Source: Candidatus Tenderia sp. (lineage in GTDB: Bacteria; Pseudomonadota; Gammaproteobacteria; Tenderiales; Tenderiaceae). From it: a stretch of DNA of 43,731 nucleotides. The translations under genes and the position numbers were made by a program. Positions 606-18,971 of this stretch are shown piece by piece (the first letter of the stretch is position 1; the number at the start of each line of letters is the position of its first letter). A model generated the notes under the pieces. It did no database searches. It saw nothing but the letters and a program-made list of their open reading frames with translations, and was not told the origin of the DNA. Where the stretch lies: positions 1 to 43,731 of the forward strand of contig JAYUTP010000253.1 in assembly GCA_043755075.1 (NCBI GenBank), in the 5' to 3' direction.

Positions 606-714
606 GATAACTACTCCTAGTACTTTGAGGCGACCTGTCAACTTTATGGCATGTCAGCCCACTCACTTGTAGCGGATATACTTCATTTAGAAATATTCAC
701 CGCTCCCATACTGT

Positions 715-742: not shown

Positions 743-784
743 ATCAGATTCAGCATCATCCATACAGACCAGAGTTATGCTTAA

Positions 785-800
785 TGGCATCTATATTGCT
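785..800 (+). promoter_or_regulatory. Candidate sigma-54 promoter in front of the first maf gene
   Basis: TGGCAT-ctata-TTGCT matches TGGCAC-N5-TTGCW. The -12 GC sits only about 15 nt before the ATG at 814. The mRNA would then be nearly leaderless, unless translation starts at the second Met (835). Confidence 0.4.
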
Positions 801-813
801 ACTACCTTAGTCT

Positions 814-3378
814 ATGTCAACGGATGTCAAGACAATGACTAATCACCACACAGGTTCCATATCAAACAAAGCACTGCATGCCCACCTGCCAGTAAAAGAG
901 AATCGGTTTGGAGATCTGTATATTGAAGCGTTGGTCGGCACAACATTTGAGTCAGTGAGCGCCACAGAAGAGTTCCAGATGCGTTTCGGGGGTGCCCTCT
1001 TCCATGAACAGACTCTCTACATCATCGTAGGTAGCGATTCTGGCCTACTGCCAAAATATATTATTAACCATGGGCTGCCACGCGGCAGTCGCTATCTATT
1101 TGTGGAGCCCTATGAGATCAGGAATCATCTTGACGAGGATATGATTTCCGCTGAGTTGGCCAATAGAATCACCATCAGTGATGAAGCCCATTGGGTCGAA
1201 CATGCGCATGAGCTAGCGCTGCTAAATTATACTTACTCTGGAAAGATCAGCTACGTTCGCTCATGTGCCGCCCAACAAAATATCCACCCCGATTACCTAG
1301 TTCTCTCCCAAACACTTGATAGGGATCTACGCCATCTGTTCTGGCTCTTTACAACCCAGTTTGACAGCCATATTTTTATCAATAGCCAACTGGCTAATCT
1401 GGCGGAGAACCGCACTCCTGCCATCTGTTTGAAAGAGTGCTTCAAAGGAAAGAGCGCCATTATTCTGGGAGCAGCGCCATCTCTCGATGGCTTGATCCCG
1501 TGGATCAAGAAACATTGTAATGAAGTGATTATTATTGCTGTTTCGAGGATATCGGAACGGCTGCTACAGGTAGGAATCGAGCCCGACATAGTTGTTTCAG
1601 TCGATCCACAAAACGTTAGCTTCTCGGTAAGCAAGGGCATGCTAAACCTAGGAAACAGAACACTTCTCGTCAATGGCAGTCACGCCACACCACTGTTGGT
1701 TGGGCAATGGCCGAACCGCAGTGTATTTTTAGGCCCACGATTACCATGGCATGACGAAGGATTTAACAACTTTTCAACTATTGCCCCAACCGTCACCAAT
1801 AATGCAATTCTTCTGGCACAAGAGTTAGGCTGTAACCAAATAATACTTGCAGGCGTTGATCTCTGTTACAGCGCAAATGGCTACACGCACGCACAAGGAA
1901 CGGCAGAGCGTACCGCTGGAGCGATGATCGGGAAGTTTGATTTTATTGTCACAACAAATTCAGGCACAGCAGCTGATACCAACAAGGGCTATTACGAAGC
2001 GATCAGTGAAATATGTAAACAAGCACAGAAGGCCTTGATTAACGGCTGTAAAATCATAAATCTGGCGGAAACTGCTGCTAAAATAGAAGGCGTTGAGTAT
2101 ATCCATCCTGAAAAAATCATCATCACCCATCCACTTACTGAACCTGCGTTTGATACAATTTCATCACTGCTCGATAAAGATACAGTCGAGGATCGATGCA
2201 GTCACTACAACGCAACAATAAAGCAGATCGACAAAGCCACCAAAGAATTAAGAAACATCATAAGACTCGCCACTGTAGCGCTTAATTGCAATGCAAAAAT
2301 GGAAAAATTATTAAAAACTCCAGATTATTCAAAATACAAAATACAGATGGATAAAATTGAAAGAAAGCTCAATCTCCGCTATGAAGTGATGAGCACCGTT
2401 GTTAAATCTTATAACTCCAGTGGTTTTTCAAAAATCATCACTGCCGATACTGGTGACGACTGGACTTCTGGCGAGCTCTTTGACAAAACAAAAACCTATT
2501 ACGATGAATATATCCACGGATCATCTGTTTTACTGGGACATATCCATGACTCAAAAAAAAGACTTTTAAACCGTCTTGAAGAAGAGAGCCCATCACCAAA
2601 ATTCGAGCGTATGTTTATACAATGGCAACAAGATATTGAATTTGGCCGGGCGATGATATGGAAAGAACGCCATCCAGACATCTATAAAAAATCGTTAGCG
2701 CAAATAAATCAGCACATGAATACCCTGACGAATCAGTTCAACTCATTACTCGATACTGACAACAAAAATTTCGACAACGCCATCCAGAGCCACTTTGCAG
2801 ACCCAAACACTTATGGAAAAATTGTAGAGAATGCTATAGCCCATCATGCCAAAGGTGATGAGGATGGATTAGTACGGTTATCTGAAGGCTTGCTTGAACG
2901 CACTGAAGAACTCTCAGTCCAGACTCTCTTATTGGTCAATGGGCTTATAAGCGAGTTGAAAAATAACTATAAAAAGGCCGAAGATACCTACTACTCAATA
3001 GATCCCAAGGTCAGTCTCGATCTAAAACAGATTGCACTTGAACGGATTGTTAATTTTTCATTGGTGAAAGAAGATTACAAAACAGTACTGCCCGCATTAA
3101 AGCAGCTCTCAGAGATAAGGGTAAGCTATAGACCTTTTTATGCAAGATTTCTCGCGCTTGCAGGAGAAGTTGTGGAAGCGATTGAAGTATATACCCAGCA
3201 TCTTCAATATCAACCTCGTGATATAGATACTTTAGTTGAACTTGGTATGTTGCTAGCGGCGGCTGGTGCAAGAGAGGCCGCCGAAAGTATATTGAACCAA
3301 ATTAGCGAGGCAGATCCAACTCATTCAGGCATTGATAATCTAACGCAGGCACTGGAGACTAACTTGTCTCAACATTAA
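814..3378 (+). CDS. maf: Motility-associated factor (Maf, DUF115/MptE-like) putative flagellin nonulosonate glycosyltransferase with long C-terminal helical/TPR-like extension
   Basis: 854 aa. Central block ...SAIILGAAPSLDGLIPWIKKHCNEVIIIAVSRISERLLQVGIEPDIVVSVDPQ... and ...ILAGVDLCY... are typical of the Maf/DUF115 fold. The C-terminal approx 400 aa are helical, with TPR-like repeats at the end (EDYKTVLPALKQL..., AIEVYTQHLQYQPRDIDTLVELGMLLAAAG). Divergent from fliC. The alternative start is Met8 at 835. Confidence 0.8.
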   Translation: MSTDVKTMTNHHTGSISNKALHAHLPVKENRFGDLYIEALVGTTFESVSATEEFQMRFGGALFHEQTLYIIVGSDSGLLPKYIINHGLPRGSRYLFVEPYEIRNHLDEDMISAELANRITISDEAHWVEHAHELALLNYTYSGKISYVRSCAAQQNIHPDYLVLSQTLDRDLRHLFWLFTTQFDSHIFINSQLANLAENRTPAICLKECFKGKSAIILGAAPSLDGLIPWIKKHCNEVIIIAVSRISERLLQVGIEPDIVVSVDPQNVSFSVSKGMLNLGNRTLLVNGSHATPLLVGQWPNRSVFLGPRLPWHDEGFNNFSTIAPTVTNNAILLAQELGCNQIILAGVDLCYSANGYTHAQGTAERTAGAMIGKFDFIVTTNSGTAADTNKGYYEAISEICKQAQKALINGCKIINLAETAAKIEGVEYIHPEKIIITHPLTEPAFDTISSLLDKDTVEDRCSHYNATIKQIDKATKELRNIIRLATVALNCNAKMEKLLKTPDYSKYKIQMDKIERKLNLRYEVMSTVVKSYNSSGFSKIITADTGDDWTSGELFDKTKTYYDEYIHGSSVLLGHIHDSKKRLLNRLEEESPSPKFERMFIQWQQDIEFGRAMIWKERHPDIYKKSLAQINQHMNTLTNQFNSLLDTDNKNFDNAIQSHFADPNTYGKIVENAIAHHAKGDEDGLVRLSEGLLERTEELSVQTLLLVNGLISELKNNYKKAEDTYYSIDPKVSLDLKQIALERIVNFSLVKEDYKTVLPALKQLSEIRVSYRPFYARFLALAGEVVEAIEVYTQHLQYQPRDIDTLVELGMLLAAAGAREAAESILNQISEADPTHSGIDNLTQALETNLSQH

Positions 3379-3412
3379 AAATAATAAGAGAACCAGATCC
3401 ATTATAAAAAAA

Positions 3413-3679
3413 TCAGGCATAAGCGCCAAGCGCACTGTTTGGCAGCATGTACTCCAGAAGATCAGCAACAAAAATATAATCACCGCGCTGTTGCGCCGCA
3501 ACAACAAGATTTAGCAGCTCTTCCTCATTTTTACCAAGAGCAGCGGAATTTTTCGCCAATAGCGGTTCCAAACAATCCATCAGTCGCATCAAGGAATCAT
3601 TGCCGCGGCTCTCCATGCCCAGTCGAAAGGCCTCAACAGCCTCCACCCTATAGATATCACATTTTTTTTTCTCCGCCAT
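3413..3679 (-). CDS. Hypothetical 88-aa acidic helical protein, last gene of the island operon
   Basis: The ORF lies 10 nt downstream of maf2 on the same strand. I recognise no family. Helical-looking sequence (..LMRLMDCLEPLLAKNSAALGKNEEELLNLVVAAQQRGDYIFVADLLEYML). Confidence 0.45.
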   Translation of the reverse strand: MAEKKKCDIYRVEAVEAFRLGMESRGNDSLMRLMDCLEPLLAKNSAALGKNEEELLNLVVAAQQRGDYIFVADLLEYMLPNSALGAYA

Positions 3680-3689
3680 AAATAAGTCC

Positions 3690-4979
3690 TCAAATAGAGT
3701 CTGGATAATCTGTCCCGGTAATCAATGCCCCTGAACGACTGGCATTGATAAAAGTGACCTGAGGATGCTGGGCGATGTAGCGCTCCAAGTCACGCATATA
3801 GCCACGCAGGTTTTTTGAGGTCAACACCTGATGGCCATGGCCATCCTCCAACCACTCCTGATACCCCAGCTGATCGGTAGCGACTTCAAAGACGGCGCCA
3901 GCAACATGGGTTCTGCTGCCCGGAAACGAGAAGTCACCCCCCATCAGCCAAAGCTGACGACTGCCCATCTTTACCGCTAGATCAACCGCAGCGTGAAACA
4001 CGGTGCCGGAGGCGTAGAGTATGCCTCTGGGATGTTGCAGCGCCAGTTGCTCATAGAGCGGGCTATTAGAGTAAGCGGCGTAACGCGGTCCTGGCCAATG
4101 CTCCATCACGGCACGATGCACAATCGGAAAGTAGACCAATGGCGTATTCGCCAGCAAGGAGAGATCAACATCAAAAAGTTTTATGATGTGGTCAGGTGCG
4201 CCATCGATAGTCACTACCACATCAGGAACGATACCGTTCTGCATTAGCGGTTTGAGCGCTGCATCAACCGCAAACAGATAGATGCCAGACTTGCGCTCAC
4301 GGAGCCGTTGATAGTGTTCACTCAATGATGGCCCGGCGCCCGCCACATAACAGCGCTGGTTTCCATAGCGACCAAAGAGTGAATCAACATCACCATCGGA
4401 TTTAACAAGTTCGACACTCGAAGCTATCTGCTGCTGGAATAGCGGATTACTCCTGACCCTGGCGTTGATATAGTCGGTATCAAGTTCCAGCACAATTTGA
4501 TCGCGCACTTTAGCCGCCATTGGATCAACAATTTTGAGACACGCTGGCACCACCGCAAACGGAACACGAATATCGGTGCGCGCAGTTGCCTGTGTCAGCC
4601 TGACGCGGTGATCTGCCAACCAATCACTCTGATCAAAATAATGCAGACAACTTCTGAAGAGTTCCAGATTCAGTATTACCACATCGAGCTGCTGCAACGG
4701 CTGACGTTGTAATAGTTCACGCTGTAAATCACCTGTCGCCACGCCATAGATCCATGCCGACGACGCGCCCTCCGCCACCCGAGTGGCCTGGAGTCTCGCC
4801 TCACGTTTGCTATCAAAACAACTGCTCAGGTGAATGCCATCCACCAGCAGGGTGGGCGCTTCCGTTTCACTGACAAAATGGGCTCGTTCTGCCGAATCAA
4901 GCAGGATGAGCGACTGATATAAGACCGGCCAGCGTCGTTCGATAATCGTCAGGTTACGCTGCAAAAATCCGCTGTCCAT
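3690..4979 (-). CDS. maf: Second Maf (DUF115/MptE-like) protein, short form lacking the C-terminal helical domain
   Basis: 429 aa. Maf-type N-terminus (FLQRNLTIIERRWPVLYQSL) and core CYVAGAGPSLSEHYQRL..IYLFAVDAALKPLMQNGIVPDVVVTIDG ... LWLMGGDFSF. Confidence 0.8.
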   Translation of the reverse strand: MDSGFLQRNLTIIERRWPVLYQSLILLDSAERAHFVSETEAPTLLVDGIHLSSCFDSKREARLQATRVAEGASSAWIYGVATGDLQRELLQRQPLQQLDVVILNLELFRSCLHYFDQSDWLADHRVRLTQATARTDIRVPFAVVPACLKIVDPMAAKVRDQIVLELDTDYINARVRSNPLFQQQIASSVELVKSDGDVDSLFGRYGNQRCYVAGAGPSLSEHYQRLRERKSGIYLFAVDAALKPLMQNGIVPDVVVTIDGAPDHIIKLFDVDLSLLANTPLVYFPIVHRAVMEHWPGPRYAAYSNSPLYEQLALQHPRGILYASGTVFHAAVDLAVKMGSRQLWLMGGDFSFPGSRTHVAGAVFEVATDQLGYQEWLEDGHGHQVLTSKNLRGYMRDLERYIAQHPQVTFINASRSGALITGTDYPDSI

Positions 4980-4985
4980 ACTCCC

Positions 4986-6953
4986 CTACTCCGCTGGCCT
5001 AAGTGTAAAAAAGAATCCCGGTAACTCACCGCCATCGCAGAATGATTCATCCAGTTCCGCTAGCGAAAAGACAATCTGCGTCAACGCGGTGGGTGAGCAC
5101 TCGCGATGATAGAGCATCGGAAATGCTGCACAGGCGGATGGCTGCCAATCGATCACCAGTCCCACCTGCTTATCCTTCACCGTAATTGAGCCGCTCTCTC
5201 CGCCTAATCCGTTAGTGACCGAGACCAACGTCGAAGCCGAGTGGGTATGAAATACATCGCGGTCGATCGCAAAAGACTCTACCAACTTGCCGCCATTGCG
5301 CGTCTGCACCGTTACTGCGCCAGAAAACGCCTCGGGCAAAAGGGTGATGAAGCCAGTTCTCACTGTGCCATAAGGACGTTTCCAGCCGGGAAATTCAACA
5401 CCACAGCCGACCTCTTCACCTGCCCGCGCGATACGTAGATGCTTGATAATATCACCCTCTTTAGTGGTCACTGCGGCACGCAGATAGAGGTAGCGGTCAT
5501 CGTAACGAATGTGCGCTTCAACACGCTCAAGATCAGTGATCCGTTTATGTTGCGTGACCTGTTCAATCACCGTGTTGGCGCTGTAAAAATCAGCGCCAAG
5601 ATCAATGGATGTGAAGTAGCCGTGAGGCAACGTACCAATAATTGGTGTCCAACCATGCCGTTTAAAAGCAAGGGCATCAATCGCCATGCCACGCCGCAGG
5701 TTCAGCCGCAATCGTAGTGTGGCGGTCGCAATGTCCAACATTATCCCTTCCGGGTCACGCGTCACTGTCACACCTTCACAGAGCCCTTGTGACGTTCCCA
5801 CCACCGGAAAAGCTTCATGCACACCGCCATCAAAATGGCTGTCGCTGCCCAACGCCGACAACAACCGCTGCACCTGATCACGCGCCTCGCCCCAACGTGT
5901 TGCGGTGATATGAGTACGAATATCACTTGCCCACAACTCGCAGAGTGTGCGCCACTTAGACTGATTCACACTGCCCCTCAAGCGCTGATAGAGGCGATGG
6001 CACATCGTATTGATCCACAAATCATCACGTCCGGTAATGGCCCAGCGGCTGACATTATATTTGGCCTGTTTTTTTACCACGATCGGCTGTGATACTGAGG
6101 TGAGGCAGAGCATTTCGCCAGAACTATGCGCCAGATGTTGATTCAGTGCTGTCGTGGGTAATACAAGTTCAATCGGGTAGTCATCTGCGAGTTTTTCGAT
6201 CAGCCCCGTTAAGCGCCGCCATTCACCTTCAGGATGAAGCTTCGATTCGACGTCATAACGGCCTGGTCGGTAATCAAATACCTCGGCATCATTGCAATAG
6301 AGCGCCAGCGGTACTCGATTGGTGGCCAGCCGCTTTTCGAAATAATCAAGATAGTCCACTAGGCGAATATCGCCGTGCATGTAGCGCTGAAGTTTCTGAA
6401 ATAGAATCGAATCAGACCAAAGCACTGGCAGCGTGATATTGCCTTCGTGATCACTGGCATGACTCGGCAGGTTCTCCGCATCCCAACTGCGACCATGGGC
6501 CAACGTCACATTATCGCGATCCATGATGATGCCCGCATAGCCGACATCCTGATACAGCTCTAGCATGCCGCTCGAATAAGCCATTTCGTTGACCAGCACC
6601 AGCGTCGGTTTTACACCTAGCAGTTCTGTATAAGTCTCCAAGCCGAGGTATTGATTCCACTGATTGACCTCAAAGGGAATCAACGGGCCAATGATCTGAC
6701 TGTAACCACTGCCAATCAACTCTGTACGCCCCTGCGCCAGCGCCGTTTTGAAACGTGTCACCCATTCAGGTGCCAGAGTATTTATCTGTAATAACGTCCA
6801 GCCGGTCAGTTCGATACCGATTTTAAAATCATGCTGCTCGATCAATTCAAGCAATGGTATATAACACGTCTTTATCACCGTCAGGCGTTGTTCTTCCGCG
6901 ATGGAGGAGTAAGCAAGATTGAGATGGAATATGGTAAACGCTTGTTTCATCAT
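4986..6953 (-). CDS. GH57-like glycoside hydrolase-fold protein (function unknown in this context)
   Basis: Strings resembling the GH57 conserved regions: FHLNLAYSS (HQP region), GRTELIGSGYSQIIGPL (GQLEI region), LVNEMAYS (nucleophile Glu region), YCNDAEVFDY (HDDGEKFG acid/base region), WASDIRTH. I trimmed the start to ATG 6953 (MMKQAF..), which forms an ATGA overlap with the stop of the upstream gene. The 26 codons upstream in the track ORF overlap that gene. Confidence 0.55.
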   Translation of the reverse strand: MMKQAFTIFHLNLAYSSIAEEQRLTVIKTCYIPLLELIEQHDFKIGIELTGWTLLQINTLAPEWVTRFKTALAQGRTELIGSGYSQIIGPLIPFEVNQWNQYLGLETYTELLGVKPTLVLVNEMAYSSGMLELYQDVGYAGIIMDRDNVTLAHGRSWDAENLPSHASDHEGNITLPVLWSDSILFQKLQRYMHGDIRLVDYLDYFEKRLATNRVPLALYCNDAEVFDYRPGRYDVESKLHPEGEWRRLTGLIEKLADDYPIELVLPTTALNQHLAHSSGEMLCLTSVSQPIVVKKQAKYNVSRWAITGRDDLWINTMCHRLYQRLRGSVNQSKWRTLCELWASDIRTHITATRWGEARDQVQRLLSALGSDSHFDGGVHEAFPVVGTSQGLCEGVTVTRDPEGIMLDIATATLRLRLNLRRGMAIDALAFKRHGWTPIIGTLPHGYFTSIDLGADFYSANTVIEQVTQHKRITDLERVEAHIRYDDRYLYLRAAVTTKEGDIIKHLRIARAGEEVGCGVEFPGWKRPYGTVRTGFITLLPEAFSGAVTVQTRNGGKLVESFAIDRDVFHTHSASTLVSVTNGLGGESGSITVKDKQVGLVIDWQPSACAAFPMLYHRECSPTALTQIVFSLAELDESFCDGGELPGFFFTLRPAE

Positions 6954-8707: not shown

Positions 8708-8711
8708 AATC

Positions 8712-9926: not shown

Positions 9927-9947
9927 TCTTGATTTGTACTCAGCTAT

Positions 9948-11036
9948 TTAAGCTACACACCTGGCATATAAAACATAATCGAATGGACTTTGCCTGTGAT
10001 GCGCAAAATAGCAACGATAATCTGGGTTAATAGCATGGATCATCAATGGTACTTGCCACATATCATCGGGTTCATGATAGGCGCTAATTATCAGCCTTGG
10101 CCGATCACGCATCAAGGTTTCAGCCGCCCCTGCCAAGGCATTAACCTCAGAGCCCTCTATGTCCATCTTTATTACATCAACCTTCAAGCCTCGCTCTCGG
10201 GAAAAATCATCGATGCTGGTGACAGCTATTTTTTTATCACCGCTGTCTGAAACATGATATTGCATACTATTTTCAAGTGCGGTAGTAAAACTCAATGTAG
10301 TCGTCTCTTTCCACATTCCAAATTGACATGGAACTACCACTGAGTTTAATTTTTCCGCCTCGATAGTTACCAGCAATCTCTGATAATTATCGGCCTCCGG
10401 CTCGAATGAGTAGATAGTGCAATTTTTATCTAGCCCATGGGAAAATTCCAGAGCGCTATCCCCAGACCAGGCACCACCGTCGAGAATGACATCGCCTCTC
10501 TCTAGCGACACCAGTGGATGGTAATACTGTGGAAATTCAGCAGGGATAAAAAACTCGGAATCGAGGGTAAGGCGATATTTAAGCAAGGCCCGATAAGTGG
10601 CGCGTGATGACTCATCTGACATCAATGCATAAGCCGCTTCTATCTGCTCCGCCGCACCCAGTATCTGCTCCGGGACATAGTGTTTCTTCCATCGCTCAAA
10701 ATCAAAAGCAAATCCAAGATAAAAATATTTGACGCCCAATTGTTGCAGCTGTCTGCCAATATCCATACCCCAATCACTGGCCACAAACACAATAGTGTTT
10801 TGATAGTCTCGTAACTGTTCTGGGGCGATAATTGGAATGCCAGAGATGAGGCCACCCTGCCTTTGCCGGTCATTATCACAGACACAGACAATGGTGATGC
10901 CAAAGGATTGCAGTACGCGTATCGCATGCGTTCCACTACCTCCGGCACCAAAAACAATTGCCTGGCTAACATCACATAGGACATCATCTATCGCTAAAAA
11001 ACGATGCGAAATTTCTTCTAACAATTCACTTAGCAT
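9948..11036 (-). CDS. FkbM-family SAM-dependent methyltransferase with N-terminal Rossmann-like module
   Basis: C-terminal half: GDVILDGGAWSGDSALEF...IYSFEPEADNYQRL...VDVIKMDIEGSEVNALAGA (FkbM hallmark). N-terminal half: IVFGAGGSGTHAIRVLQSFGITIVCVCDNDRQRQGGLISGIPIIAPEQL. Confidence 0.75.
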   Translation of the reverse strand: MLSELLEEISHRFLAIDDVLCDVSQAIVFGAGGSGTHAIRVLQSFGITIVCVCDNDRQRQGGLISGIPIIAPEQLRDYQNTIVFVASDWGMDIGRQLQQLGVKYFYLGFAFDFERWKKHYVPEQILGAAEQIEAAYALMSDESSRATYRALLKYRLTLDSEFFIPAEFPQYYHPLVSLERGDVILDGGAWSGDSALEFSHGLDKNCTIYSFEPEADNYQRLLVTIEAEKLNSVVVPCQFGMWKETTTLSFTTALENSMQYHVSDSGDKKIAVTSIDDFSRERGLKVDVIKMDIEGSEVNALAGAAETLMRDRPRLIISAYHEPDDMWQVPLMIHAINPDYRCYFAHHRQSPFDYVLYARCVA

Positions 11037-11106
11037 TTATTTAAATATCCCTTTAAAAAACTATCCATTCCAATCTCTCGTTTTTTACAATTATCTTATC
11101 CAGTCA

Positions 11107-12819
11107 TCAACGAGACCACATCTGATCCAATGTCTGGCCTGCCAGAAGCATCGGCGTTATATCTTCCTCTTCATCAATGACACAGTGAACCAACGCCGGG
11201 CCATGATGGGCAAATGCCTCTTGCAGCGTCGCCTCCACTGCCCCACTCTCACGTATCGTGAAGGCACGAATACCATACCCTTCGGCAATCACAGCGAAGT
11301 CTGGATTCCACTTGTTACCGGTGGTGGGATCATCTTGCCAGTTAAAATTCTGAAACTGCGAGACGATGCCGAGTCGGTGATTATCAAGCACGATAATTTT
11401 CACCGGCAGATTGTGTTCCGCCACGGCGCCCAGCTCCTGCATGTTCATCTGCAACGATCCATCACCGACAAAACAGAGCACCAATGCATCCTTGTCCTGT
11501 AGCTGTGCACCCACTGCACTCGGCAAATCGTAACCCATCGCGCCGTGGCCACCCGATGTCAACAGTGCGCGCCGTGGATAATCAAAGCTGAAGTGGCGCG
11601 CCACCCAGTGTTGATGAGAACCGACGCCAGTGACAGCCAGCACGCGCTGGCCACGACTCAGACGATCAGCTGTTTCCACCACCCACTGCGGTTTGAATCG
11701 GCTGTGTTGGTCATAGCTCAGGGCGTACTCTTGCCGCCAGGCATCAATCTGTTGAAGCCATGCTGACCACTGTGGCAGTTTCACTGTTTTCAATTCCGGC
11801 AGCAGTGGCAGCAGCGCCAGCAACGCCGCTTTGGCATCGGCATTGATCAACAAGTCGGTGCGTACCCGGCCATGTTTTGCCTCATTGGCATCAAGGTCGA
11901 TACGCACAATCCTGGCACCCGGTGCAAAACGGTCAAACTGATTGCCGGTCTGGCGCACATCGAGACGCGAGCCAATTGCGATGACCAGATCGGCATTCTG
12001 GATCGCCTTGCCCGCATACTGATTGCCGGTGTGACCGTGGAAGCCCAAGGACAACTCTGAATCGGATGGCATCGCCCCCAGCCCGAGCAGCGAGTGGGAA
12101 ACGGGGATGCTATAAGTGGTCGCCAGCATGCGCAACTCTTCATGCGCCTGTGCCAGCAATACCCCCTGGCCAGCGATAATGATCGGGCGCTGCGCGTTAT
12201 TCAGCCATGCAGCTAGCTGCGCGATGCCAGAGAAGATGCCAGCGAGATCGCTATCCTGTTGCTGCATTTTCAATATTGGCAGCACTACGGCAGGAGCCGA
12301 TAGTTCACCACGCTGCACATTCATCGGCATGTCGATCAGCACCGGGCCAAAGCGGCCACTGCTGGCGATATAAAATGCCTGATCCATCACCCGTGCCAGA
12401 TCGTCCTGATGCTCGACCAAAAACTGCGCCTTGGTGATTGATGCCATCAGGGCACAACTATCGACCTCCTGAAAGCCGCGCTGCCGTACTGGCAGGTCAC
12501 GTTTGAGATCGCCGGTTCCAACCTGACCCGTAATCACGATCAACGGCGTATTGTCAAAATAGGCGTCAGCCACGGCGGTTATAAGATTGGTGACACCCGG
12601 CCCGGAGGTGACCATCACTACCTGCGGTTGCATTCTCAGCCGCGATACCGCCAATGCCGCGTAACCCGCCCCCTGTTCGTGACGGCCACAAAAAATATCC
12701 AGCCCTCTATTTTTAGCCTCGTGAAGAATCGGTGCGATAGTGCCACCTGGATAAACATAGAGCCGTTCACAGTCGTGGCGAACGAACGCATCAACAATAA
12801 CTTCAACACCTGTTGTCAT
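11107..12819 (-). CDS. Thiamine-diphosphate-dependent enzyme, acetolactate synthase large-subunit-like
   Basis: 570 aa. N-terminal Pyr domain (YVYPGGTIAPILHE...RHEQGAGYAALAVSRL...TSGPGVTNL). C-terminal ThDP motif GDGSLQMNMQELGAVAEHNLPVKIIVLDN (GDG-X-N type). Confidence 0.85.
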   Translation of the reverse strand: MTTGVEVIVDAFVRHDCERLYVYPGGTIAPILHEAKNRGLDIFCGRHEQGAGYAALAVSRLRMQPQVVMVTSGPGVTNLITAVADAYFDNTPLIVITGQVGTGDLKRDLPVRQRGFQEVDSCALMASITKAQFLVEHQDDLARVMDQAFYIASSGRFGPVLIDMPMNVQRGELSAPAVVLPILKMQQQDSDLAGIFSGIAQLAAWLNNAQRPIIIAGQGVLLAQAHEELRMLATTYSIPVSHSLLGLGAMPSDSELSLGFHGHTGNQYAGKAIQNADLVIAIGSRLDVRQTGNQFDRFAPGARIVRIDLDANEAKHGRVRTDLLINADAKAALLALLPLLPELKTVKLPQWSAWLQQIDAWRQEYALSYDQHSRFKPQWVVETADRLSRGQRVLAVTGVGSHQHWVARHFSFDYPRRALLTSGGHGAMGYDLPSAVGAQLQDKDALVLCFVGDGSLQMNMQELGAVAEHNLPVKIIVLDNHRLGIVSQFQNFNWQDDPTTGNKWNPDFAVIAEGYGIRAFTIRESGAVEATLQEAFAHHGPALVHCVIDEEEDITPMLLAGQTLDQMWSR

Positions 12820-12835
12820 GATTCAAATTCCATCT

Positions 12836-14092
12836 TTAATAACGTGATGTTCTGTCATAGAGCGCGATGATTCTTGATTCTGCCACTCCCTTCTCCTGCA
12901 ACACATTGAGCAGGCTTTCCTGGCCACCATAAGTGGAAATCACTATCGGAAAGCTGTCGCTGCACCACGCCTGCTCCGGGATCTGTTCGGGCGACAACAC
13001 CGGCAACGAATGGTAGTGGTGCCCCTGCTTCAGCGGATCACTATCCACCAGAACATAACTGGCATCCAGATCAAACAGGCGCGTCAGCAGTGCCAGATAT
13101 TCAGTGTGCTGCCCTGCGCCCCAGATCATGATCTGCCGCGCACTATGCAAATTTTCGATGCGGCGTCTCACCAGTTCTACGTTGTTTTTCCACACATCAA
13201 GATAGGTGCGTGCCGCAACCAAACCGCTGGCATCATGGCCAACATCTGCCTGAATCTGACCATGCTCTGCCACCACCCGCCAGCCGTTGTAGCCCTCCAT
13301 CGCCTCGCCATGAACAATGCGCCAACCATTTTTTGCCAGCAGTCGTTTCAGCGAGGTCTTACTAAAATGCGTGAGATGCTGCACGGTGAAGAAGCCAACA
13401 ATATCGCGATCCTGTAACTCGGCGGCACGATCCACCACCGGCACCTCGATCACCAACGCAACAGAATGCTTCGACAAGCTGTGAAGCTGGGCCAGAAAGC
13501 CATCGGGATCGGGCAGGTGTTCAAGTACGTGAAACATGGTGATCACATCCACCTGCGGCAGACTCTCCAAGCCATTAAAATCGCAGCGCGTAAAGTTGAT
13601 GCCGGGGGCATCGTGCGCCACGTTGCTAAGCGTTTGTTCATCGACATCAATACCGTAACGCGACAATGTCTGCGGCAGCGCCTTGAGCAGATCGCCATTC
13701 CCACACCCCACATCCATCAGTGATTCTGCCGCTGGGAAGCGTTCACTCAACCACGTCACCTGTTCACCGATGCGCCCGGCGGTGTGGCCATAACTGCAAC
13801 CCGCCTTGTCAAACAGCACCTGAAACCCTGTTGGGGTGTAACAAGGATTGGTGTAGATCAGGCCACACTGTTGGCAACAGACCACGCGATGATCGGCGCG
13901 ATTGCGGCCATCCTGGTCGGTAAAAAACTGAAAATCGTTCAGGGCGAAGAGTTCATCTTCAGCACTGCTCTGACATAAGGGGCAGTGACGAAACGTTTGT
14001 AGTGGCTCACTGCTGGCACTGCGCTGTAAACGCATTACCTTGGTCCATGGCAACTCATTCATATTTATCATCTCGCCATTATCTTGCATCAT
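12836..14092 (-). CDS. Class I SAM-dependent methyltransferase with N-terminal Cys4 zinc ribbon and C-terminal Rossmann-like module (sugar C-/N-methyltransferase-like architecture)
   Basis: CPLCQS...CCQQCGLIYTNP (zinc ribbon), LMDVGCGNGDLLKAL (SAM motif I), VDVITMFHVLEHLPDP, then IMIWGAGQHTEYLALL...DSDPLKQGHHYHSLPVLSPEQI. The first ATG overlaps the upstream stop (ATGA). A downstream Met start is also possible. Confidence 0.7.
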   Translation of the reverse strand: MMQDNGEMINMNELPWTKVMRLQRSASSEPLQTFRHCPLCQSSAEDELFALNDFQFFTDQDGRNRADHRVVCCQQCGLIYTNPCYTPTGFQVLFDKAGCSYGHTAGRIGEQVTWLSERFPAAESLMDVGCGNGDLLKALPQTLSRYGIDVDEQTLSNVAHDAPGINFTRCDFNGLESLPQVDVITMFHVLEHLPDPDGFLAQLHSLSKHSVALVIEVPVVDRAAELQDRDIVGFFTVQHLTHFSKTSLKRLLAKNGWRIVHGEAMEGYNGWRVVAEHGQIQADVGHDASGLVAARTYLDVWKNNVELVRRRIENLHSARQIMIWGAGQHTEYLALLTRLFDLDASYVLVDSDPLKQGHHYHSLPVLSPEQIPEQAWCSDSFPIVISTYGGQESLLNVLQEKGVAESRIIALYDRTSRY

Positions 14093-15156
14093 CTTGAAGG
14101 TACCGACATTCCGTTTCGCGGCAGAGGAAAATTAATTTCAGTGCCCCCTTGTTGCTGGGAGTGGTAGAAAGCGAGCGCCATTTCCAGTGCGGTGCGTGCC
14201 TCTTTTGCAGTTGATGCCACACGCAGGCACTCTTTATTTCCGAGCAACGCCGCCACTGCGGAATCCCAGGCAGTTCCCTCATAGGCAGAGGGTGGCATGT
14301 TAATCGTGGTCGGTAGCAATTCATCAAAGCCACTCATGCGTGCGCTTGAGGCAGGACGATAAAGCGAGAGGCCGTCATTACCGATTCTGATCCGCCCTTT
14401 AGTGGCGACGATATCGAACTCGAAGATGAAGTAATTCTTTACCTGTCCTTCGATAGTAGCGACTACACCATTGGCAAAGTAAAACTGCCCGACACCGCCA
14501 GCATCGGCCAATTTTTTAGCGCTGTAACGATAACCGCTCTGCTTATCTTTTTTGGCTTTGATGACCACCCTTCCCTGCGCCGCCAGCGGCTCACCAAACC
14601 ACCAGTGCAATACATCAAAGGCATGGGTACCGGTGTGAATCAGACTGCCGGAGAAGAGCACGTTGACGGAAAGAACGCGGCCAATGGTCTCGTTGTCGAT
14701 CATCCACTTCACCTGCTGGTAATCGTTGGACCAGCGCCGCATGTGGCCGGTAACAAGCAGGGTCTTACTCTTGGCGAGTGCATCCACCATCTCATCCGCC
14801 TGCTCCAGCGATGTCGCCAATGCTTTTTCACAGAAGATGGCCGGTATTTTGTGATTGATCGCTGCCATCACCATCTCGTGGCGCTCGGTGGCATAAGCCG
14901 AGATGCTGAGCAGATCAATCCGTTCCTCTGCCAGCATCTGGCGGTAATCATGATAAAGCGCATCAACACCATAACGTTCGGCAAACTCGCGACGCGCCTT
15001 CTCATCCACATCACTGCCGGTCTGAATCCGGCAACCATGTTTGAGATAGCCACCGACATGGGTACAGGGTTTAACGCGTAATAGATCATTTTCCATTCGC
15101 CAAGCGATGCGACCCAGTCCGATGATTGCTGCGTGTGGTTCATCATTCATCCTCAT
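14089..15156 (-). CDS. Gfo/Idh/MocA-family NAD(P)-dependent oxidoreductase
   Basis: AAIIGLGRIAWRM..., ...YHDYRQMLAEERIDLLSISAYATERHEMVMAAINHKIPAIFCEKALATSLEQADEMV is the typical EKP-type motif region. 4-nt overlaps with both neighbours. Confidence 0.8.
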   Translation of the reverse strand: MRMNDEPHAAIIGLGRIAWRMENDLLRVKPCTHVGGYLKHGCRIQTGSDVDEKARREFAERYGVDALYHDYRQMLAEERIDLLSISAYATERHEMVMAAINHKIPAIFCEKALATSLEQADEMVDALAKSKTLLVTGHMRRWSNDYQQVKWMIDNETIGRVLSVNVLFSGSLIHTGTHAFDVLHWWFGEPLAAQGRVVIKAKKDKQSGYRYSAKKLADAGGVGQFYFANGVVATIEGQVKNYFIFEFDIVATKGRIRIGNDGLSLYRPASSARMSGFDELLPTTINMPPSAYEGTAWDSAVAALLGNKECLRVASTAKEARTALEMALAFYHSQQQGGTEINFPLPRNGMSVPSR

Positions 15157-15917
15157 CCCATGTACAACCCACCGTTGATGTTGAGTGTTTGACCGGTGAT
15201 GTAGCTCGCCTTGTCCGAGAGCAGATAGGCAATGGCATTGGCCACCTCCTGCGCTTCTCCAGCACGGGCCAGTGGTACATGCAGAGCGATTTTGTCGCGA
15301 CCGACATCGGAATTTAGTTCGCCTTGAGTCATCTCGGTGACGATCAAACCGGGTGAAACACAGTTGGCGCGAATAGCATTGGCCGCACCAACCCGTGCCA
15401 GCGATTTAGTCAGCGCGATAATGCCTGCTTTGGTAACGGCGTAATGCACGGCCAACATACCACCGAGCTGTCCACCCGATGAGGCGACATTGACGATTAC
15501 GCCGCCCTTTCCCACCATGCGCACCATGATTTCCTGCGAACAGATAAAGGCCCCTTTGAGATTGACATCGATCATGCGATCCCAATCTTCATCGGTAATA
15601 GTGGCGAAGGGTTTTTGTTGCAAAATGCCCGCGTTATTCACCAGCCCATGGATGGCACCGCAACGTTGCATTGCGACATCCATTGCCCCTTGCACCTGCT
15701 GGCGATCAACGATATTAACCTGACGGCAGACCAGCGGGACTGCAAACTGCTGCAACTGCGCTGCTGCACTCTCGGCATCAGACTTGCGACTGTTGTACCA
15801 AAGTTCCAGAGCGTAGCCCTGTGCCGCTAGAACTTTGGCCGTGGCAAGACCAATGCCACGTGTTCCGCCCGTAATGATGACCAGTGCTGGTGATTGCTCC
15901 ATTGCATTACTCTCCAT
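15153..15917 (-). CDS. Short-chain dehydrogenase/reductase (FabG-like)
   Basis: VIITGGTRGIGLATAKVLA (TGxxxGxG), NNAGI, and a catalytic S...YxxxK pattern (ASSGG...YAVTKAG). Confidence 0.85.
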   Translation of the reverse strand: MESNAMEQSPALVIITGGTRGIGLATAKVLAAQGYALELWYNSRKSDAESAAAQLQQFAVPLVCRQVNIVDRQQVQGAMDVAMQRCGAIHGLVNNAGILQQKPFATITDEDWDRMIDVNLKGAFICSQEIMVRMVGKGGVIVNVASSGGQLGGMLAVHYAVTKAGIIALTKSLARVGAANAIRANCVSPGLIVTEMTQGELNSDVGRDKIALHVPLARAGEAQEVANAIAYLLSDKASYITGQTLNINGGLYMG

Positions 15918-15924
15918 TCAGGGT

Positions 15925-16791
15925 TTAACGCTGTTGCCACTCGTCGCGAATATTCTGTAGCGGCCGCAATCCATCCTTGGGATCGGCGCGCCAATCGCGA
16001 TCAGCCAACTCGGCGACTGACGGCACTTTGCAACCATCACCATCCGCCGTGAGACCACGTTTTAGGGTAGTGATAACCTCGGCCATCTGCGCTGGCAACC
16101 AACAGTGTCCCGCCGCGTACTCCGCTCCCTTGGCATCGAGATCGAGGTGAAATTCGATCAACTCAGCAGCCCAATGATAGATGGCGCGATAGATCACGGC
16201 GGGATCGACGGTGTGATCAGACCAACCGACTGTACACGCGGCGGCGTCACGAATCGTGGCGATAGCCGCCAGATTGCAATCCTTGGCCAGCGTTGGATAG
16301 GCAGAGACGCAGTGCAGCAGCGCCAACTCCTTACCGCCCGCATTGCGCATCACCTGCATGGCATGGCTAATCTCAGGCAGGATCGCCATGCCGGTGGAGA
16401 GGATGACGGGTTTGCCGGTATCGACACACTTGACCAGCAACTCATCCCACAGCAGTTCATAAGAGGCGATCTTGTAAAAATCAACATAAGGCAGCAGCTC
16501 ATCAACGGCTTCAAGATAGAAGGGTGTACAGCTAAATTCTATTTTTTTCTGTTGGCAGCGTTCATAAAGTTTCGGCAGGAATTCTAGCGGCAACTCCCAC
16601 TCCTGGCGTTTGCGATGGGCCTCACTCTTGGCCAGGATCACCGGGGCAAAGAGTTGATCGATCTTGAAGAGCTGGAATTTAACGGCATCGCAGCCAATCT
16701 CGGCAGCGGCATCGATGAAGTCAAGGCAACGAATCAGATCACGACTATGGTTGCTGGAGACCTCGGCAATAAATTTTGGCATCTGTTTCAT
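15925..16791 (-). CDS. NeuB/PseI-family nonulosonate (sialic-acid-type) synthase homologue, TIM-barrel domain only (no SAF domain)
   Basis: FIAEVSSNHSRDLIRCLDFIDAAAEIGCDAVKFQLF, YKIASYE, GKPVILSTGMA, LLHCVSAYP and GWSDHT match the NeuB barrel. The protein ends at 288 aa, without the approx 60-aa C-terminal SAF/antifreeze-like domain. Confidence 0.7.
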   Translation of the reverse strand: MKQMPKFIAEVSSNHSRDLIRCLDFIDAAAEIGCDAVKFQLFKIDQLFAPVILAKSEAHRKRQEWELPLEFLPKLYERCQQKKIEFSCTPFYLEAVDELLPYVDFYKIASYELLWDELLVKCVDTGKPVILSTGMAILPEISHAMQVMRNAGGKELALLHCVSAYPTLAKDCNLAAIATIRDAAACTVGWSDHTVDPAVIYRAIYHWAAELIEFHLDLDAKGAEYAAGHCWLPAQMAEVITTLKRGLTADGDGCKVPSVAELADRDWRADPKDGLRPLQNIRDEWQQR

Positions 16792-17924
16792 GATACTGCC
16801 TCATCCTTTACCGCAGTGATTACTTCTTCCACCTGAACATCACTCATCCCTGGATAAATCGGCAGTGATAAAAGTTCGGTAAAAACCTGCTCCGCGACAG
16901 GACACTGACCGGCATGTGCACCAAAACGTTCGCGATAAAAGCGATGCAGATTAAGTGGCAGATAGTGGACGTTGACGCCAATATCACGCTGGCGCAGCGC
17001 CGTAAATAACTCATCACGGGTTTTTCCAAACTGGCTGACATCAACCCGAATCGCATAGAGATGGTAGCCATGAGACACCCCCGCTCGGGTGGCCAGCGGC
17101 GTAACTCCAGCAACTGCGGCAAAGGCGTTGTCGTACTGCGCTGCAATCTGCTGGCGCCGTTTAATCCAGCCATCAAGCTTGTTCAGCTGCGAAATACCCA
17201 GGGCACAGAGGATATCGGAGATGCGGTAGTTGTAACCCAGCGAAACCATTTCATAGAACCACTGCCCGGCTGCTTCACGCTGGCGGCTATCGTTGTCGAT
17301 GCCGTGATTACGGAAACGGCGCATGGCGCGCCATAACGACTCATCATCGGTGACAATCATGCCACCCTCGCCAGTGGTGATGGGCTTTACTGGATGAAAA
17401 CTGAATGTGGTTAAATCGGCTAACTGCCCAACCTTGCCAAACTCAGACGAGGCACCGAGTGAGTGGCTGGCATCGGCCACTAATATCAGGTTGTGGCGAT
17501 TGGCGATGGTTTTCAACGCCGCGTAGTCACACGGCTGACCGGCGTAATCAACGGCGATAATCGCCTTGGTCTTTGACGTAATTTTTGACTCTACCGAAGC
17601 GGGATCGATCAGCAGAGTGTCGCGTTCAACATCGGCAAAGACTGGGGTGCCATTCTGAAAGACAACGGCATTAGCCGTCGCCACGAAGGTGATGGCAGGC
17701 ACGATCACCTCGTCACCGGGGCCAATCCCGGCTGCCACGGCGGCACAGTGCAGAGCGGCAGTACCGTTGCAAACTGCCAGGGCATGACGGGTACCGACAT
17801 AAGCGGCAACATTATGTTCGAACTCATCCACCTTGGGACCGGTAGTCAACCAATCCGATTCCAATGTTGCGGTGACCGCAGCCACATCATCGCCGCTGAT
17901 GGATTGGCGGCCATAGGGGATCAC
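16788..17924 (-). CDS. pseC: UDP-4-amino-4,6-dideoxy-N-acetyl-beta-L-altrosamine transaminase (DegT/PseC family)
   Basis: MIPYGRQSI..D..AV...L.SDWLTTGPKV..FE plus FSFHPVKPITTGEGGMIVTDDESLWRAMRRFRNHGI. These closely parallel the Helicobacter/Campylobacter PseC motifs, including the PLP lysine. Confidence 0.85.
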   Translation of the reverse strand: MIPYGRQSISGDDVAAVTATLESDWLTTGPKVDEFEHNVAAYVGTRHALAVCNGTAALHCAAVAAGIGPGDEVIVPAITFVATANAVVFQNGTPVFADVERDTLLIDPASVESKITSKTKAIIAVDYAGQPCDYAALKTIANRHNLILVADASHSLGASSEFGKVGQLADLTTFSFHPVKPITTGEGGMIVTDDESLWRAMRRFRNHGIDNDSRQREAAGQWFYEMVSLGYNYRISDILCALGISQLNKLDGWIKRRQQIAAQYDNAFAAVAGVTPLATRAGVSHGYHLYAIRVDVSQFGKTRDELFTALRQRDIGVNVHYLPLNLHRFYRERFGAHAGQCPVAEQVFTELLSLPIYPGMSDVQVEEVITAVKDEAVS

Positions 17925-18919
17925 AATCCCAGCTCCCGATTTAGCTCAACTAGCTGTGGTACTGTCAGGAATTCAGCGTTGTTGCCGGAGCTGTAGTAAA
18001 ACCCCTGCTCCACAATTTTGCCCTTCTCGCCCATACGATTAGTTTCAAAATTGACACTTCTGAACATCTGGATGGTGGGACAGATGACGTAGTGGTCGCC
18101 AAAGTCGAGTGTCAGATGAGAATCATCAGCGGGACACATTATTTCGTGCAGTTTTTCGCCGGGACGGATGCCAACAAATTCGGCCGGCATGCCGGGTGCA
18201 ATCGACTCCGCCAGATCCATAATCCTGATCGACGGGATCTTCGGCACAAAGAGTTCGCCACCCTGCATGCGCTGGAAATTTTTCAACACAAAATCGACTC
18301 CCTGTTGCAGGGTAATCCAGAAACGGGTCATACGTTCATCGGTAATCGGCAGTGCGTGTGCCCCCTCGGCAATAATTTTTCTAAAGAATGGCACGACTGA
18401 ACCACGAGACCCCACGACATTGCCATAACGCACCACTGAAAAGCGGCACTGGCGCGAACCGACGATGTTGTTGGCGGCAATAAACAGTTTGTCCGAGGCG
18501 AGTTTGGTGGCTCCATAGAGGTTGACCGGGTTGGCGGCCTTGTCGGTAGAAAGAGCGATTACCTTCTCGACGTTATTTTCCAACGCGGCCTCGATCACAT
18601 TCTGGGCACCGTGAATATTAGTCTTGATGCACTCCATCGGATTATATTCAGCCGCAGGTACATGTTTGAGGGCGGCGGCGTGGATAATAAAGTCGACATT
18701 ACGCGTCGCCTGTTTAAGGCGGTCGCCATCACGGACATCACCGATAAAGTAGCGCATCATCGGGCCGTTGTAGTGCTGCTGCATCTCGTACTGCTTCAGT
18801 TCATCACGAGAGTAGATGATCAACCTAGCGGGCTTGTAGCGTTCAAGCAGGGTTTTGATATAACGCTGGCCAAAGGAACCCGTGCCACCGGTGATTAGTA
18901 TCGATTTTCCATTAAACAT
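17921..18919 (-). CDS. pseB: UDP-N-acetylglucosamine 4,6-dehydratase (inverting), PseB/FlaA1
   Basis: SILITGGTGSFGQ, IIYSRDELKQYEM, YFIGDVRD, HAAALKHVPAAEYNP, STDKAANPVNLYGATKLASDKLF. This is the PseB signature set. Confidence 0.9.
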   Translation of the reverse strand: MFNGKSILITGGTGSFGQRYIKTLLERYKPARLIIYSRDELKQYEMQQHYNGPMMRYFIGDVRDGDRLKQATRNVDFIIHAAALKHVPAAEYNPMECIKTNIHGAQNVIEAALENNVEKVIALSTDKAANPVNLYGATKLASDKLFIAANNIVGSRQCRFSVVRYGNVVGSRGSVVPFFRKIIAEGAHALPITDERMTRFWITLQQGVDFVLKNFQRMQGGELFVPKIPSIRIMDLAESIAPGMPAEFVGIRPGEKLHEIMCPADDSHLTLDFGDHYVICPTIQMFRSVNFETNRMGEKGKIVEQGFYYSSGNNAEFLTVPQLVELNRELGL

Positions 18920-18955
18920 TTTTGAGTGCCCACCCAGTTGTCGTATGGGTAGTCA

Positions 18956-18971
18956 TACAATATCCATGCCA
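18956..18971 (-). promoter_or_regulatory. Weak candidate sigma-54 promoter for the pseB operon
   Basis: rc = TGGCAT-ggata-TTGTA. The -24 box is good, but the -12 box reads GT instead of GC. It lies 37 nt upstream of the pseB ATG. Confidence 0.3.

Follow-up and report, generated by a model that had tools for sequence, protein, structure and literature searches.

Nonulosonate glycans on flagellin control filament assembly, phage recognition and immune detection. Among the described examples is Shewanella oneidensis MR-1, whose glycan has been known by mass since 2013 and for which an operon, sfmABCDE, was described (Bubendorfer et al., 2013, PMC3765264). The S. oneidensis locus encodes PseB and PseC, clear orthologues of PseH, PseG, PseI and PseF are absent, and deletion of any of sfmA-D leaves flagellin at about its unmodified mass, while deletion of sfmE gives a somewhat smaller shift (PMC3765264). 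The glycan, 510-538 Da on flagellin serines, joins a 274-Da unit to a unit of 236, 250 or 264 Da; by high-resolution mass spectrometry the inner unit (oxonium ion C11H19N2O6+) is a mono-N-acetyl pseudaminic acid (Pse) with a basic group, and the easily lost outer unit is C9H16O7, C10H18O7 or C11H20O7 with one O-methyl group or more (PMC3765264). An unusually large cytidylyltransferase (SO_3269) belongs to the locus, which is flanked by the glycosyltransferases Maf-1 (SO_3273) and Maf-2 (SO_3259) (bioRxiv 10.1101/2023.12.03.569772). Here we analyzed a stretch of 43,731 nucleotides from a Candidatus Tenderia sp. assembly (contig JAYUTP010000253.1, the whole of which stretch is called the window) in which the genes between a flagellin gene and flgL probably (at a rough probability of 0.8) form a flagellin O-glycosylation island of the S. 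oneidensis MR-1 type (SO_3259-SO_3273) in a Tenderia-like gammaproteobacterium. Judged by the published descriptions, this island belongs with the Shewanella sfm/Maf-1/Maf-2-GlfM type and is not a new kind of system; it places the same described gene set in a different gammaproteobacterial order.

The interval from the flagellin gene to flgL is filled by 14 genes, of which 13 lie on the minus strand and one on the plus strand (814-3378), and the same 14 were returned by independent gene calls on the source metagenome contigs, which carry an identical thiamine diphosphate (ThDP)-dependent protein. The island and its borders, with window coordinates and strand, are as follows.

<1-605, minus: 5' part of the flagellin gene (first 201 codons, from translation; the remainder lies beyond the window edge).
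715-742, minus: sigma-28 (FliA) type promoter consensus TAAAG-N15-GCCGATAA, an exact match upstream of the flagellin gene.
814-3378, plus: Maf-1-type flagellin glycosyltransferase, 854 aa; PF01973 MptE-like domain, 143.2 bits, aa 191-353.
3413-3679, minus: GlfM-like adaptor, 88 aa, 10 nt downstream of maf-2; by size, fold and signature residues.
3690-4979, minus: Maf-2-type flagellin glycosyltransferase, 429 aa, lacking the tetratricopeptide repeat (TPR) extension; PF01973, 116 bits, aa 192-353.
4986-6953, minus: GH57-like protein, 654 aa (ATG at 6953); PF03065, 48.5 bits.
6950-8707, minus: fusion of a PseF-like cytidylyltransferase (N-terminal) and a PseG-like UDP-sugar hydrolase, 585 aa; Pfam and NCBIfam.
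8712-9926, minus: ATP-grasp carboxylate-amine ligase, 404 aa, SfmE-like by description; ATP-grasp_3 and LAL_C2 domains.
9948-11036, minus: FkbM-family methyltransferase with a NeuD/PglD-like N-terminal domain, 362 aa, accessory; PF05050 (62.7 bits), TIGR01444 and PF22674.
11037-11106, no strand: 70-nt spacer upstream of the FkbM gene, 26% G+C, the sole long gap within the operon.
11107-12819, minus: ThDP-dependent carboligase like acetohydroxyacid synthase (AHAS), 570 aa, SfmB-like by description; all three TPP_enzyme domains.
12836-14092, minus: class I S-adenosylmethionine (SAM) methyltransferase, 418 aa, SfmD-like by description; Methyltransf_23, 73.8 bits, aa 106-261.
14089-15156, minus: Gfo/Idh/MocA NAD(P) oxidoreductase, 355 aa, accessory; PF01408, PF22725 and PF02894.
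15153-15917, minus: FabG-like short-chain dehydrogenase/reductase (SDR), 254 aa, SfmC-like by description; adh_short_C2, 196.8 bits.
15925-16791, minus: short NeuB-family nonulosonate synthase, 288 aa, SfmA/'PseI'-like by description; PF03102, 193 bits.
16788-17924, minus: PseC C4 aminotransferase, 378 aa, GTG start; TIGR03588, 450.9 bits (cut-off 423.5).
17921-18919, minus: PseB inverting UDP-GlcNAc 4,6-dehydratase, 332 aa; TIGR03589, 549.3 bits (cut-off 407.75).
19252-20154, minus: flgL (hook-filament junction protein), the island boundary; TIGR02550, 291.7 bits (cut-off 127.2).

All five sfmABCDE components (SO_3261-SO_3265) are matched in the window by domain and length. SfmA, a NeuB domain only, has 290 aa in S. 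oneidensis and 288 aa here; SfmB, a TPP-binding protein annotated ilvB, 581 and 570 aa; SfmC, a 3-oxoacyl-ACP reductase, 255 and 254 aa; SfmD, a SAM methyltransferase, 395 and 418 aa; and SfmE, an ATP-grasp protein, 412 and 404 aa (PMC3765264 for the Shewanella proteins). The window also has an oversized cytidylyltransferase of 585 residues, whose extra length is a fused PseG-like domain. With maf-2, glfM, SO_3269, pseC, pseB and maf-1 the two loci thus share the same described components at near-identical lengths, and in both there is no clear PseH, one Maf bears a TPR domain, a short Maf is followed by a helical protein of 88 or 89 aa with an FR...D..E signature, and the genes lie within a polar flagellar gene cluster. 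The preliminary description of this DNA, made from the letters of the sequence, proposed a flagellin O-glycosylation island that has a PseB/PseC core, a pair of Mafs and a large set of tailoring genes but no PseH; this proposal is supported, and every one of its family calls was confirmed by Pfam and NCBIfam profile searches. Its view that the enzyme combination is unknown from characterised flagellin glycan pathways did not hold, as the combination matches the published sfmABCDE by description (PMC3765264). Nor is the Maf pair unusual, as it had supposed, since the two Mafs and the 88-aa open reading frame (ORF) correspond to the published Maf-1 with TPR and Maf-2/GlfM (bioRxiv 10.1101/2023.12.03.569772). 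Our literature search found no later work on the sfm enzymes beyond the 2013 paper, and no ThDP/acetolactate-synthase-like enzymes in Pse flagellin islands beyond that same paper (PMC3765264).

The 13 minus-strand genes form a co-directional, unbroken block from pseB, the first gene of the operon, down to the 88-aa ORF, as had been described. Of the five start/stop overlaps of 4 nt reported earlier as ATGA-type, four are ATGA (16788-16791, 15153-15156, 14089-14092 and 6950-6953), and the fifth, between pseB and pseC at 17921-17924, reads GTGA because the pseC start codon is GTG. The remaining gaps measure 4-21 nt except for the 70-nt AT-rich spacer at 11037-11106, again in line with the preliminary description, and these intergenic gaps leave no room for further genes. 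That description had counted 16 ORFs, 15 of them on the minus strand, where gene calls on the window and the metagenome contigs gave 14 and 13; part of the over-count may be explained by the cytidylyltransferase and PseG being a single 585-aa fusion. The island does lie between fliC and flgL as it had placed it, although the flagellin gene itself (<1-605) falls outside the interval it had delimited. The ORF at 814-3378 was considered as a candidate flagellin and rejected on its MptE-like/Maf domain (Pfam). Beyond flgL stand flgK, further ORFs and then cheR, cheV, flgA, flgM, flgN and a YcgR-like PilZ gene, which places the island within a flagellar gene cluster. Its order is kept gene for gene between flgL and fliC in three relatives (L007-L009 of the genome survey described below), so the arrangement is not a chance one. 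The window flagellin, 82% identical to the flagellin adjoining the same island in L008 and L009, is the predicted acceptor protein of the glycan.

Both Maf proteins pass the cut-off of PF01973 (MptE-like/DUF115, MAF_flag10; 34.6 bits) and are encoded beside flagellin and nonulosonate genes, an arrangement repeated in L007-L009. They are 24% identical, in the core only. Maf-2 ends right after this core, and in a PDB sequence search it gave marginal MptE matches only. In Maf-1 the core ends near aa 435 and about 420 extra C-terminal residues follow, with a TPR_19 match (31.6 bits) at aa 782-844; the protein also gave a weak PseD match. In S. oneidensis, Maf-1 binds flagellin through its C-terminal TPR domain, and Maf-2 needs the cis-encoded GlfM (SO_3260), an 89-aa four-helix protein likened to FliS/FliT whose gene is usually downstream of maf-2 (bioRxiv 10.1101/2023.12.03.569772). 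The 854-aa Maf of the window shares the C-terminal TPR with the bipartite Maf-1 flagellin sialyltransferase of Unay, Kint and Viollier, and the small gene directly downstream of the short Maf recalls their tripartite GlfM-Maf-2 system. The Maf-1 gene has a G+C content of 43%, clearly below the rest of the island (51-56%), and of all the island proteins its product is the least conserved in close relatives, with 58-63% identity where the others have 66-93%.

No Pfam or NCBIfam model matched the 88-aa protein. It resembles GlfM in position, size, fold and signature residues. Its AlphaFold2 model (predicted local distance difference test (pLDDT) score of 83, predicted TM-score (pTM) of 0.74) shows helices at residues 2-19, 23-43, 50-65 and 68-81 and a terminal turn at 83-87, and the top Foldseek matches are FliS structures (5maw_E and 6gow_E), weak at E ~0.5. 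In six family members F18-R19 and D73-L-L-E76 are invariant, with D73 in the fourth helix. In orthologues of S. oneidensis GlfM the residues F24, R25, D77 and E80 are strictly conserved, and D77, in the last helix, is essential (bioRxiv 10.1101/2023.12.03.569772). The two proteins thus share four predicted helices, a conserved Asp in the last long helix and the likeness to FliS. The D-x-x-E spacing is equal in both, whereas the distance from FR to D is 55 residues in the window and 53 in GlfM. A word-indexed search with the 88-aa protein found 11 close relatives only. The signature FR...D..E occurred in 99 of 149 profile matches of the 88-aa family. A full HMMER profile search gave 240 members of the GlfM family; none among the profile matches of that family had F24, R25, D77 and E80 at the exact S. 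oneidensis positions, and a cluster look-up of ten matches led to metagenome proteins plus one Tenderia protein.

The core genes were also compared with the canonical CMP-Pse5Ac7Ac pathway of Campylobacter and Helicobacter (PseB, C, H, G, I and F, with PseD/PseE/Maf transferases). The island shares with it PseB and PseC at equivalog level, PseG-like, NeuB-family and cytidylyltransferase domains, and Maf-family transferases adjoining flagellin. It differs in having no PseH, in the fusion of PseG to the cytidylyltransferase, in a synthase without the SAF domain that stays under the PseI cut-off, and in seven extra tailoring genes. The 288-aa synthase, which lacks the C-terminal SAF domain, has a 290-aa relative in the PDB (6ncs), and copies 60-68% identical to it occur in 39 of the 80 surveyed loci. 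At the N-terminus of the fusion, CTP_transf_3 matches aa 6-130 with 80.5 bits, above the Pfam cut-off (profile positions 2-125 of 217), and no PseF equivalog model of NCBIfam matched. At the C-terminus the PseG model TIGR03590 covers 265 residues (aa 257-521) with 48.2 bits, below its cut-off of 153.55; the two parts are separate genes in the Methanothrix locus L022. As had been noted from the sequence, PseH is missing: Pfam and NCBIfam scans of the 14 island proteins detected no acetyltransferase domain of the GNAT/PseH or left-handed beta-helix type. A PseH hidden inside the 585-aa fusion was ruled out, the unassigned remainder being too short.

The ThDP enzyme has the full three-domain architecture of biosynthetic AHAS large subunits (IlvB/IlvI), and its best PDB relatives are acetohydroxyacid synthases (E ~1e-99). 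However, it scores 492.7 bits on TIGR00118, just under the cut-off of 538.35 and thus not at the level of the biosynthetic-AHAS equivalog, and it stands in a sugar operon, where in related loci a split transketolase is interchangeable with the AHAS-like type; no gene for an ilvN/ilvH-like small regulatory subunit was found in the island by gene map or Pfam. The FabG-like SDR stays under all NCBIfam equivalog cut-offs. The 418-aa SAM methyltransferase has no close relative in the PDB, and the best PDB relative of the ATP-grasp ligase is the L-amino acid ligase 3vot. More than 3216 ATP-grasp homologues were found at E ≤ 1e-10, many of them 60-66% identical and spread across phyla. Two further genes are local in character. 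The Gfo/Idh/MocA protein, inositol-dehydrogenase-like in the PDB, is limited to close relatives and one other locus (4/80). The FkbM methyltransferase looks like a recently gained accessory gene: its G+C content is 0.45, against 0.52-0.56 for the genes on either side, and L009 and L049 have it but the closest relatives L007 and L008 lack it. The gene and the 70-nt spacer together (9948-11106) form an insertion/deletion polymorphism among relatives. In the FkbM protein NeuD_NnaD matches aa 26-86, the N-terminal non-catalytic domain alone.

The GH57-like protein, which would have 681 aa if it started at an in-frame TTG at 7031, was modelled with AlphaFold2 at a pLDDT of 87 and a pTM of 0.89. The top Foldseek matches, over the whole length, were 1k1x, the GH57 4-alpha-glucanotransferase of Thermococcus litoralis, and GH38 alpha-mannosidases, with which it shares the (beta/alpha)7 barrel, the helical region and the C-terminal beta-sandwich. 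E122 and D221, both invariant, coincide in a profile alignment with E123 and D214 of 1k1w, which we take to be the GH57 catalytic nucleophile and acid/base, so the protein is probably active, as a glycosidase or transglycosylase of the retaining type. However, identity to these enzymes is only 12%, there is no alpha-glucan context, and the protein belongs to a family of its own tied to ATP-grasp and pse genes; the pse-operon context argues for a substrate other than alpha-glucans. At least 1727 homologues were found, all without a functional name or labelled 'hypothetical'.

To follow the cassette beyond this locus, genomes were scanned with an alignment of the ATP-grasp protein, taking one genome per species, and the best 80 of 285 loci were examined (L007-L086), with presence scored by tblastn with the window proteins. 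The closest three loci, with 82-83% ATP-grasp identity, carry the labels of a Candidatus Tenderia sp., a Chromatiaceae metagenome-assembled genome (MAG) and a Gammaproteobacteria MAG; Shewanella is not among the best 80 of the 285. The GH57-like gene was present at 68 of the 80 loci, nearly always directly downstream of the ATP-grasp gene, and the SDR gene at 66, mostly directly upstream of it. Then follow short NeuB (39/80), PseF/G (38/80), PseC (29/80), PseB and the AHAS-like ThDP enzyme (28/80 each), the 418-aa methyltransferase (27/80), FkbM (12/80), Maf-2 (8/80), Maf-1 (6/80), and GlfM and Gfo/Idh/MocA (4/80 each). The recurring order on one strand is [ThDP]-SDR-ATP-grasp-GH57-like, with a split transketolase (Pfam) in place of the AHAS-like gene at loci without the latter. 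[ThDP carboligase]-SDR-ATP-grasp-GH57-like is therefore a conserved cassette adjoining pse genes in many phyla, archaea included, with host labels such as Acidobacteriota, Chloroflexia, Gemmatimonadota, Desulfobacterota, Alphaproteobacteria, Bacteroidota, Methanothrix and a Marine Group I thaumarchaeote, among others. Cultured candidates among the carriers are Geoalkalibacter ferrihydriticus, Plasticicumulans acidivorans DSM 23606 and Desulfuromonas sp. CSMB_57. A tailoring core this common in genomes does not agree with the earlier view of an unprecedented set. A match to flagellin, FlgL, FlgK or Maf lay within 10 kb at only 29 of the 80 loci, which ties the cassette to pse genes and not to flagella. 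A more distant gammaproteobacterium (L019) has ThDP, ATP-grasp, GH57-like, Maf-2 and GlfM genes together.

The type of ThDP step was tallied at the 62 loci where the flank upstream of the ATP-grasp gene extends for 5 kb or more. There the AHAS-like enzyme was found at 23, a transketolase-like pair at 32, either at 54 and both at one. This near-exclusive alternation suggests that the conserved chemistry is the transfer of an activated two-carbon unit, for which the AHAS-like and split-transketolase enzymes look like interchangeable donors. The type of ThDP enzyme showed no clear pattern with the type of methyltransferase across loci. The region of the ThDP step lies about 3 kb upstream of the ATP-grasp gene (for example L037:6608-9244). 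Bins that carry the cassette include those of the archaea L022 (Methanothrix MAG) and L041 (Marine Group I thaumarchaeote), and of lineages usually held to be non-flagellated, L085 (Flavobacteriaceae MAG) and L054 (Pedobacter MAG). L054 has a flagellin-like match of 51% identity, which raises the question of mis-binning.

In the route that we propose, PseB and PseC would convert UDP-GlcNAc to UDP-4-amino-4,6-dideoxy-L-AltNAc, and the absence of PseH from the island implies that the 4-amino group (N7 of the final sugar) would stay unacetylated. The PseG domain would then strip UDP, the short NeuB-type synthase would add phosphoenolpyruvate, and the cytidylyltransferase domain would yield the CMP-sugar. 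The AHAS-like ThDP carboligase, FabG-like reductase, methyltransferases, ATP-grasp ligase and GH57-like protein are the putative makers and attachers of a substituent, with the Gfo/Idh/MocA oxidoreductase and the FkbM methyltransferase as possible local extras in tailoring. This substituent may be large, nitrogen-free, O-methylated and polyhydroxy, C9H16O7 plus 0-2 CH2 in the Shewanella version. In the cytoplasm the CMP-sugar would be passed to flagellin Ser/Thr by two routes, one through Maf-1, binding flagellin via its own TPR domain, and the other through Maf-2 with the 88-aa GlfM adaptor. The gene families, the structure of the operon, its conservation and its synteny are shown by the data; for the glycan type, these two transfer routes and the role of the tailoring genes in flagellin modification, we infer the same arrangement as in S. 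oneidensis. The composition of the Shewanella glycan fits the gene content, as there is no PseH and there are methyltransferases and enzymes that could build or attach a carbon chain. The product that had been proposed from the sequence, a nonulosonate of the Pse type whose substituent is hydroxylated, methylated and not an acetyl group, would likewise agree with the Shewanella mass spectrometry (PMC3765264). Judged from the formula, C9H18O8 could be a 1-deoxy-nonulose from hydroxyethyl-ThDP and heptose, a reduced 3,9-dideoxy-nonulosonic acid, or the AHAS-type adduct of a C7 keto-deoxy acid after reduction. An O-methylated polyhydroxy appendage has a related precedent in the flagellin of Treponema denticola, whose glycan is a Pse-type sugar with a 2-methoxy-4,5,6-trihydroxyhexanoyl group (PMC13439194). 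More broadly, we give roughly even odds to the idea that the widespread cassette decorates 7-N-unacetylated Pse with a nitrogen-free, chain-extended polyhydroxy unit, the window being one flagellar instance. If so, an AHAS-type enzyme and a GH57-fold enzyme whose catalytic residues are intact would each carry out new reactions. The C9H16O7 of Shewanella would fit, among others, a 1-deoxy-nonulose formed from pyruvate and a heptose, or a keto-deoxy acid in reduced form. The survey offers concrete hypotheses of this kind and many orthologue sets for reconstitution.

Several points weigh against assigning the island to the S. oneidensis type. The gene order differs, the window island lying between flgL and fliC and not beside the flg cluster, and no counterpart in Shewanella is confirmed for the GH57-like, FkbM and Gfo/Idh/MocA genes; the published descriptions consulted do not name the products of SO_3266-SO_3268. 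The correspondence was drawn from published domain descriptions, lengths, gene order and the four GlfM residues, not from alignments, and the host here is an uncultured, Tenderia-like gammaproteobacterium. The PseG, PseI and PseF assignments fall below equivalog cut-offs, and the genome could hold a PseH gene outside the window. It may also be asked whether the backbone is Pse at all, or another nonulosonate such as legionaminic acid (Leg), an 8-epi form or a neuraminic-type sugar. The short NeuB scores about 162 bits on both the PseI (TIGR03586, cut-off 340.25) and the NeuB equivalog models, below the cut-off in each case; an SDR paired with a Gfo/Idh/MocA protein could, in principle, oxidise and then reduce a hydroxyl and so epimerise it; and some Shewanella strains have Leg genes at the same locus (bioRxiv 10.1101/2023.12.03.569772). 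However, PseB and PseC pass their equivalog cut-offs and score much less on the LegB and LegC models (69 bits against 549 for PseB, 249 against 451 for PseC), a PseG-like domain is present, and Pfam and NCBIfam detected no NeuC/LegG 2-epimerase and no LegX/PtmE-type nucleotidyltransferase among the island proteins, so that a different backbone appears decidedly unlikely.

We think it decidedly unlikely that the tailoring genes are a separate pathway for a surface polysaccharide, lipopolysaccharide or S-layer glycan that merely adjoins pse and maf, with flagellin receiving a simple Pse derivative. The SDR-ATP-grasp-GH57-like cassette is not flagellum-specific, given the 29 of 80 loci above and its occurrence in Methanothrix, Marine Group I thaumarchaeote, Flavobacteriaceae and Chloroflexia lineages; yet the tailoring genes of the window are interspersed with the core (pseB-pseC-neuB-SDR-GFO-MT...ATP-grasp-pseF/G-GH57L-maf2-glfM, where GFO is the Gfo/Idh/MocA gene, MT the methyltransferase gene and GH57L the GH57-like gene) and coupled to it by 4-nt overlaps. 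This translational coupling to the pse genes also answers the doubt raised in the preliminary description that they might form an adjacent pathway. No polysaccharide glycosyltransferase, flippase or polymerase gene was found in the island with Pfam, and the flagellin mass of S. oneidensis changes when the described counterparts are deleted (PMC3765264). Because other phyla also have the cassette beside pseB, pseC and neuB, it appears tied to the nonulosonate and not to a particular acceptor. A different role for the ThDP enzyme can be drawn from YerE, an AHAS-like sugar-branching enzyme that adds a two-carbon branch in yersiniose synthesis. By this analogy the enzyme would add such a branch to the 4-keto intermediate of PseB and give a branched or chain-extended ulosonic acid. 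The alternation of the AHAS-like enzyme and split transketolase, both of which transfer activated two-carbon units, is compatible with this, and CMP-ulosonic acids with an extended backbone have been reported in Magnetospirillum (bioRxiv 10.64898/2026.04.20.719630). But an equivalog-level PseC would use the same 4-keto position, the inner 274-Da unit of Shewanella is an ordinary C9 mono-N-acetyl Pse by composition and fragmentation, and the C9H16O7 beyond it is a unit of its own that is easily lost (PMC3765264). Branching of the sugar nucleotide is thus very improbable, and an island of the S. oneidensis type, with the ThDP enzyme contributing to a separate substituent, remains the preferred reading.

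Transcription signals were sought in the window as well. The sigma-28 consensus upstream of the flagellin gene had no match in 100 dinucleotide shuffles. Scans of 1-19999 gave 18 sigma-70 promoter-like sites, against 20.7 expected, and 28 intrinsic-terminator-like sites, against 19.9 ± 4.5 expected, with none of either at an operon boundary. The operon promoter must lie in the 332-nt region between flgL and pseB (18920-19251), where neither an exact sigma-28 consensus nor a sigma-70-like site is present on the operon strand. Directly after the flgL stop codon stands a GC-rich hairpin, GCCGCCTTTGGCGGGC. Farther along the window, a sulfite/nitrite reductase haemoprotein gene (34597-36315, plus strand) comes right after flgN and the YcgR-like PilZ gene. 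A 607-aa ORF with a GTG start and no Pfam match (39066-40889, minus strand) lies between further ORFs and a XerC/D-type tyrosine recombinase gene (37635-38753), which together with a DsbC-like gene occupies 36842-38753 on the minus strand. The reductase, DsbC-like and recombinase genes are an ordinary chromosomal context.

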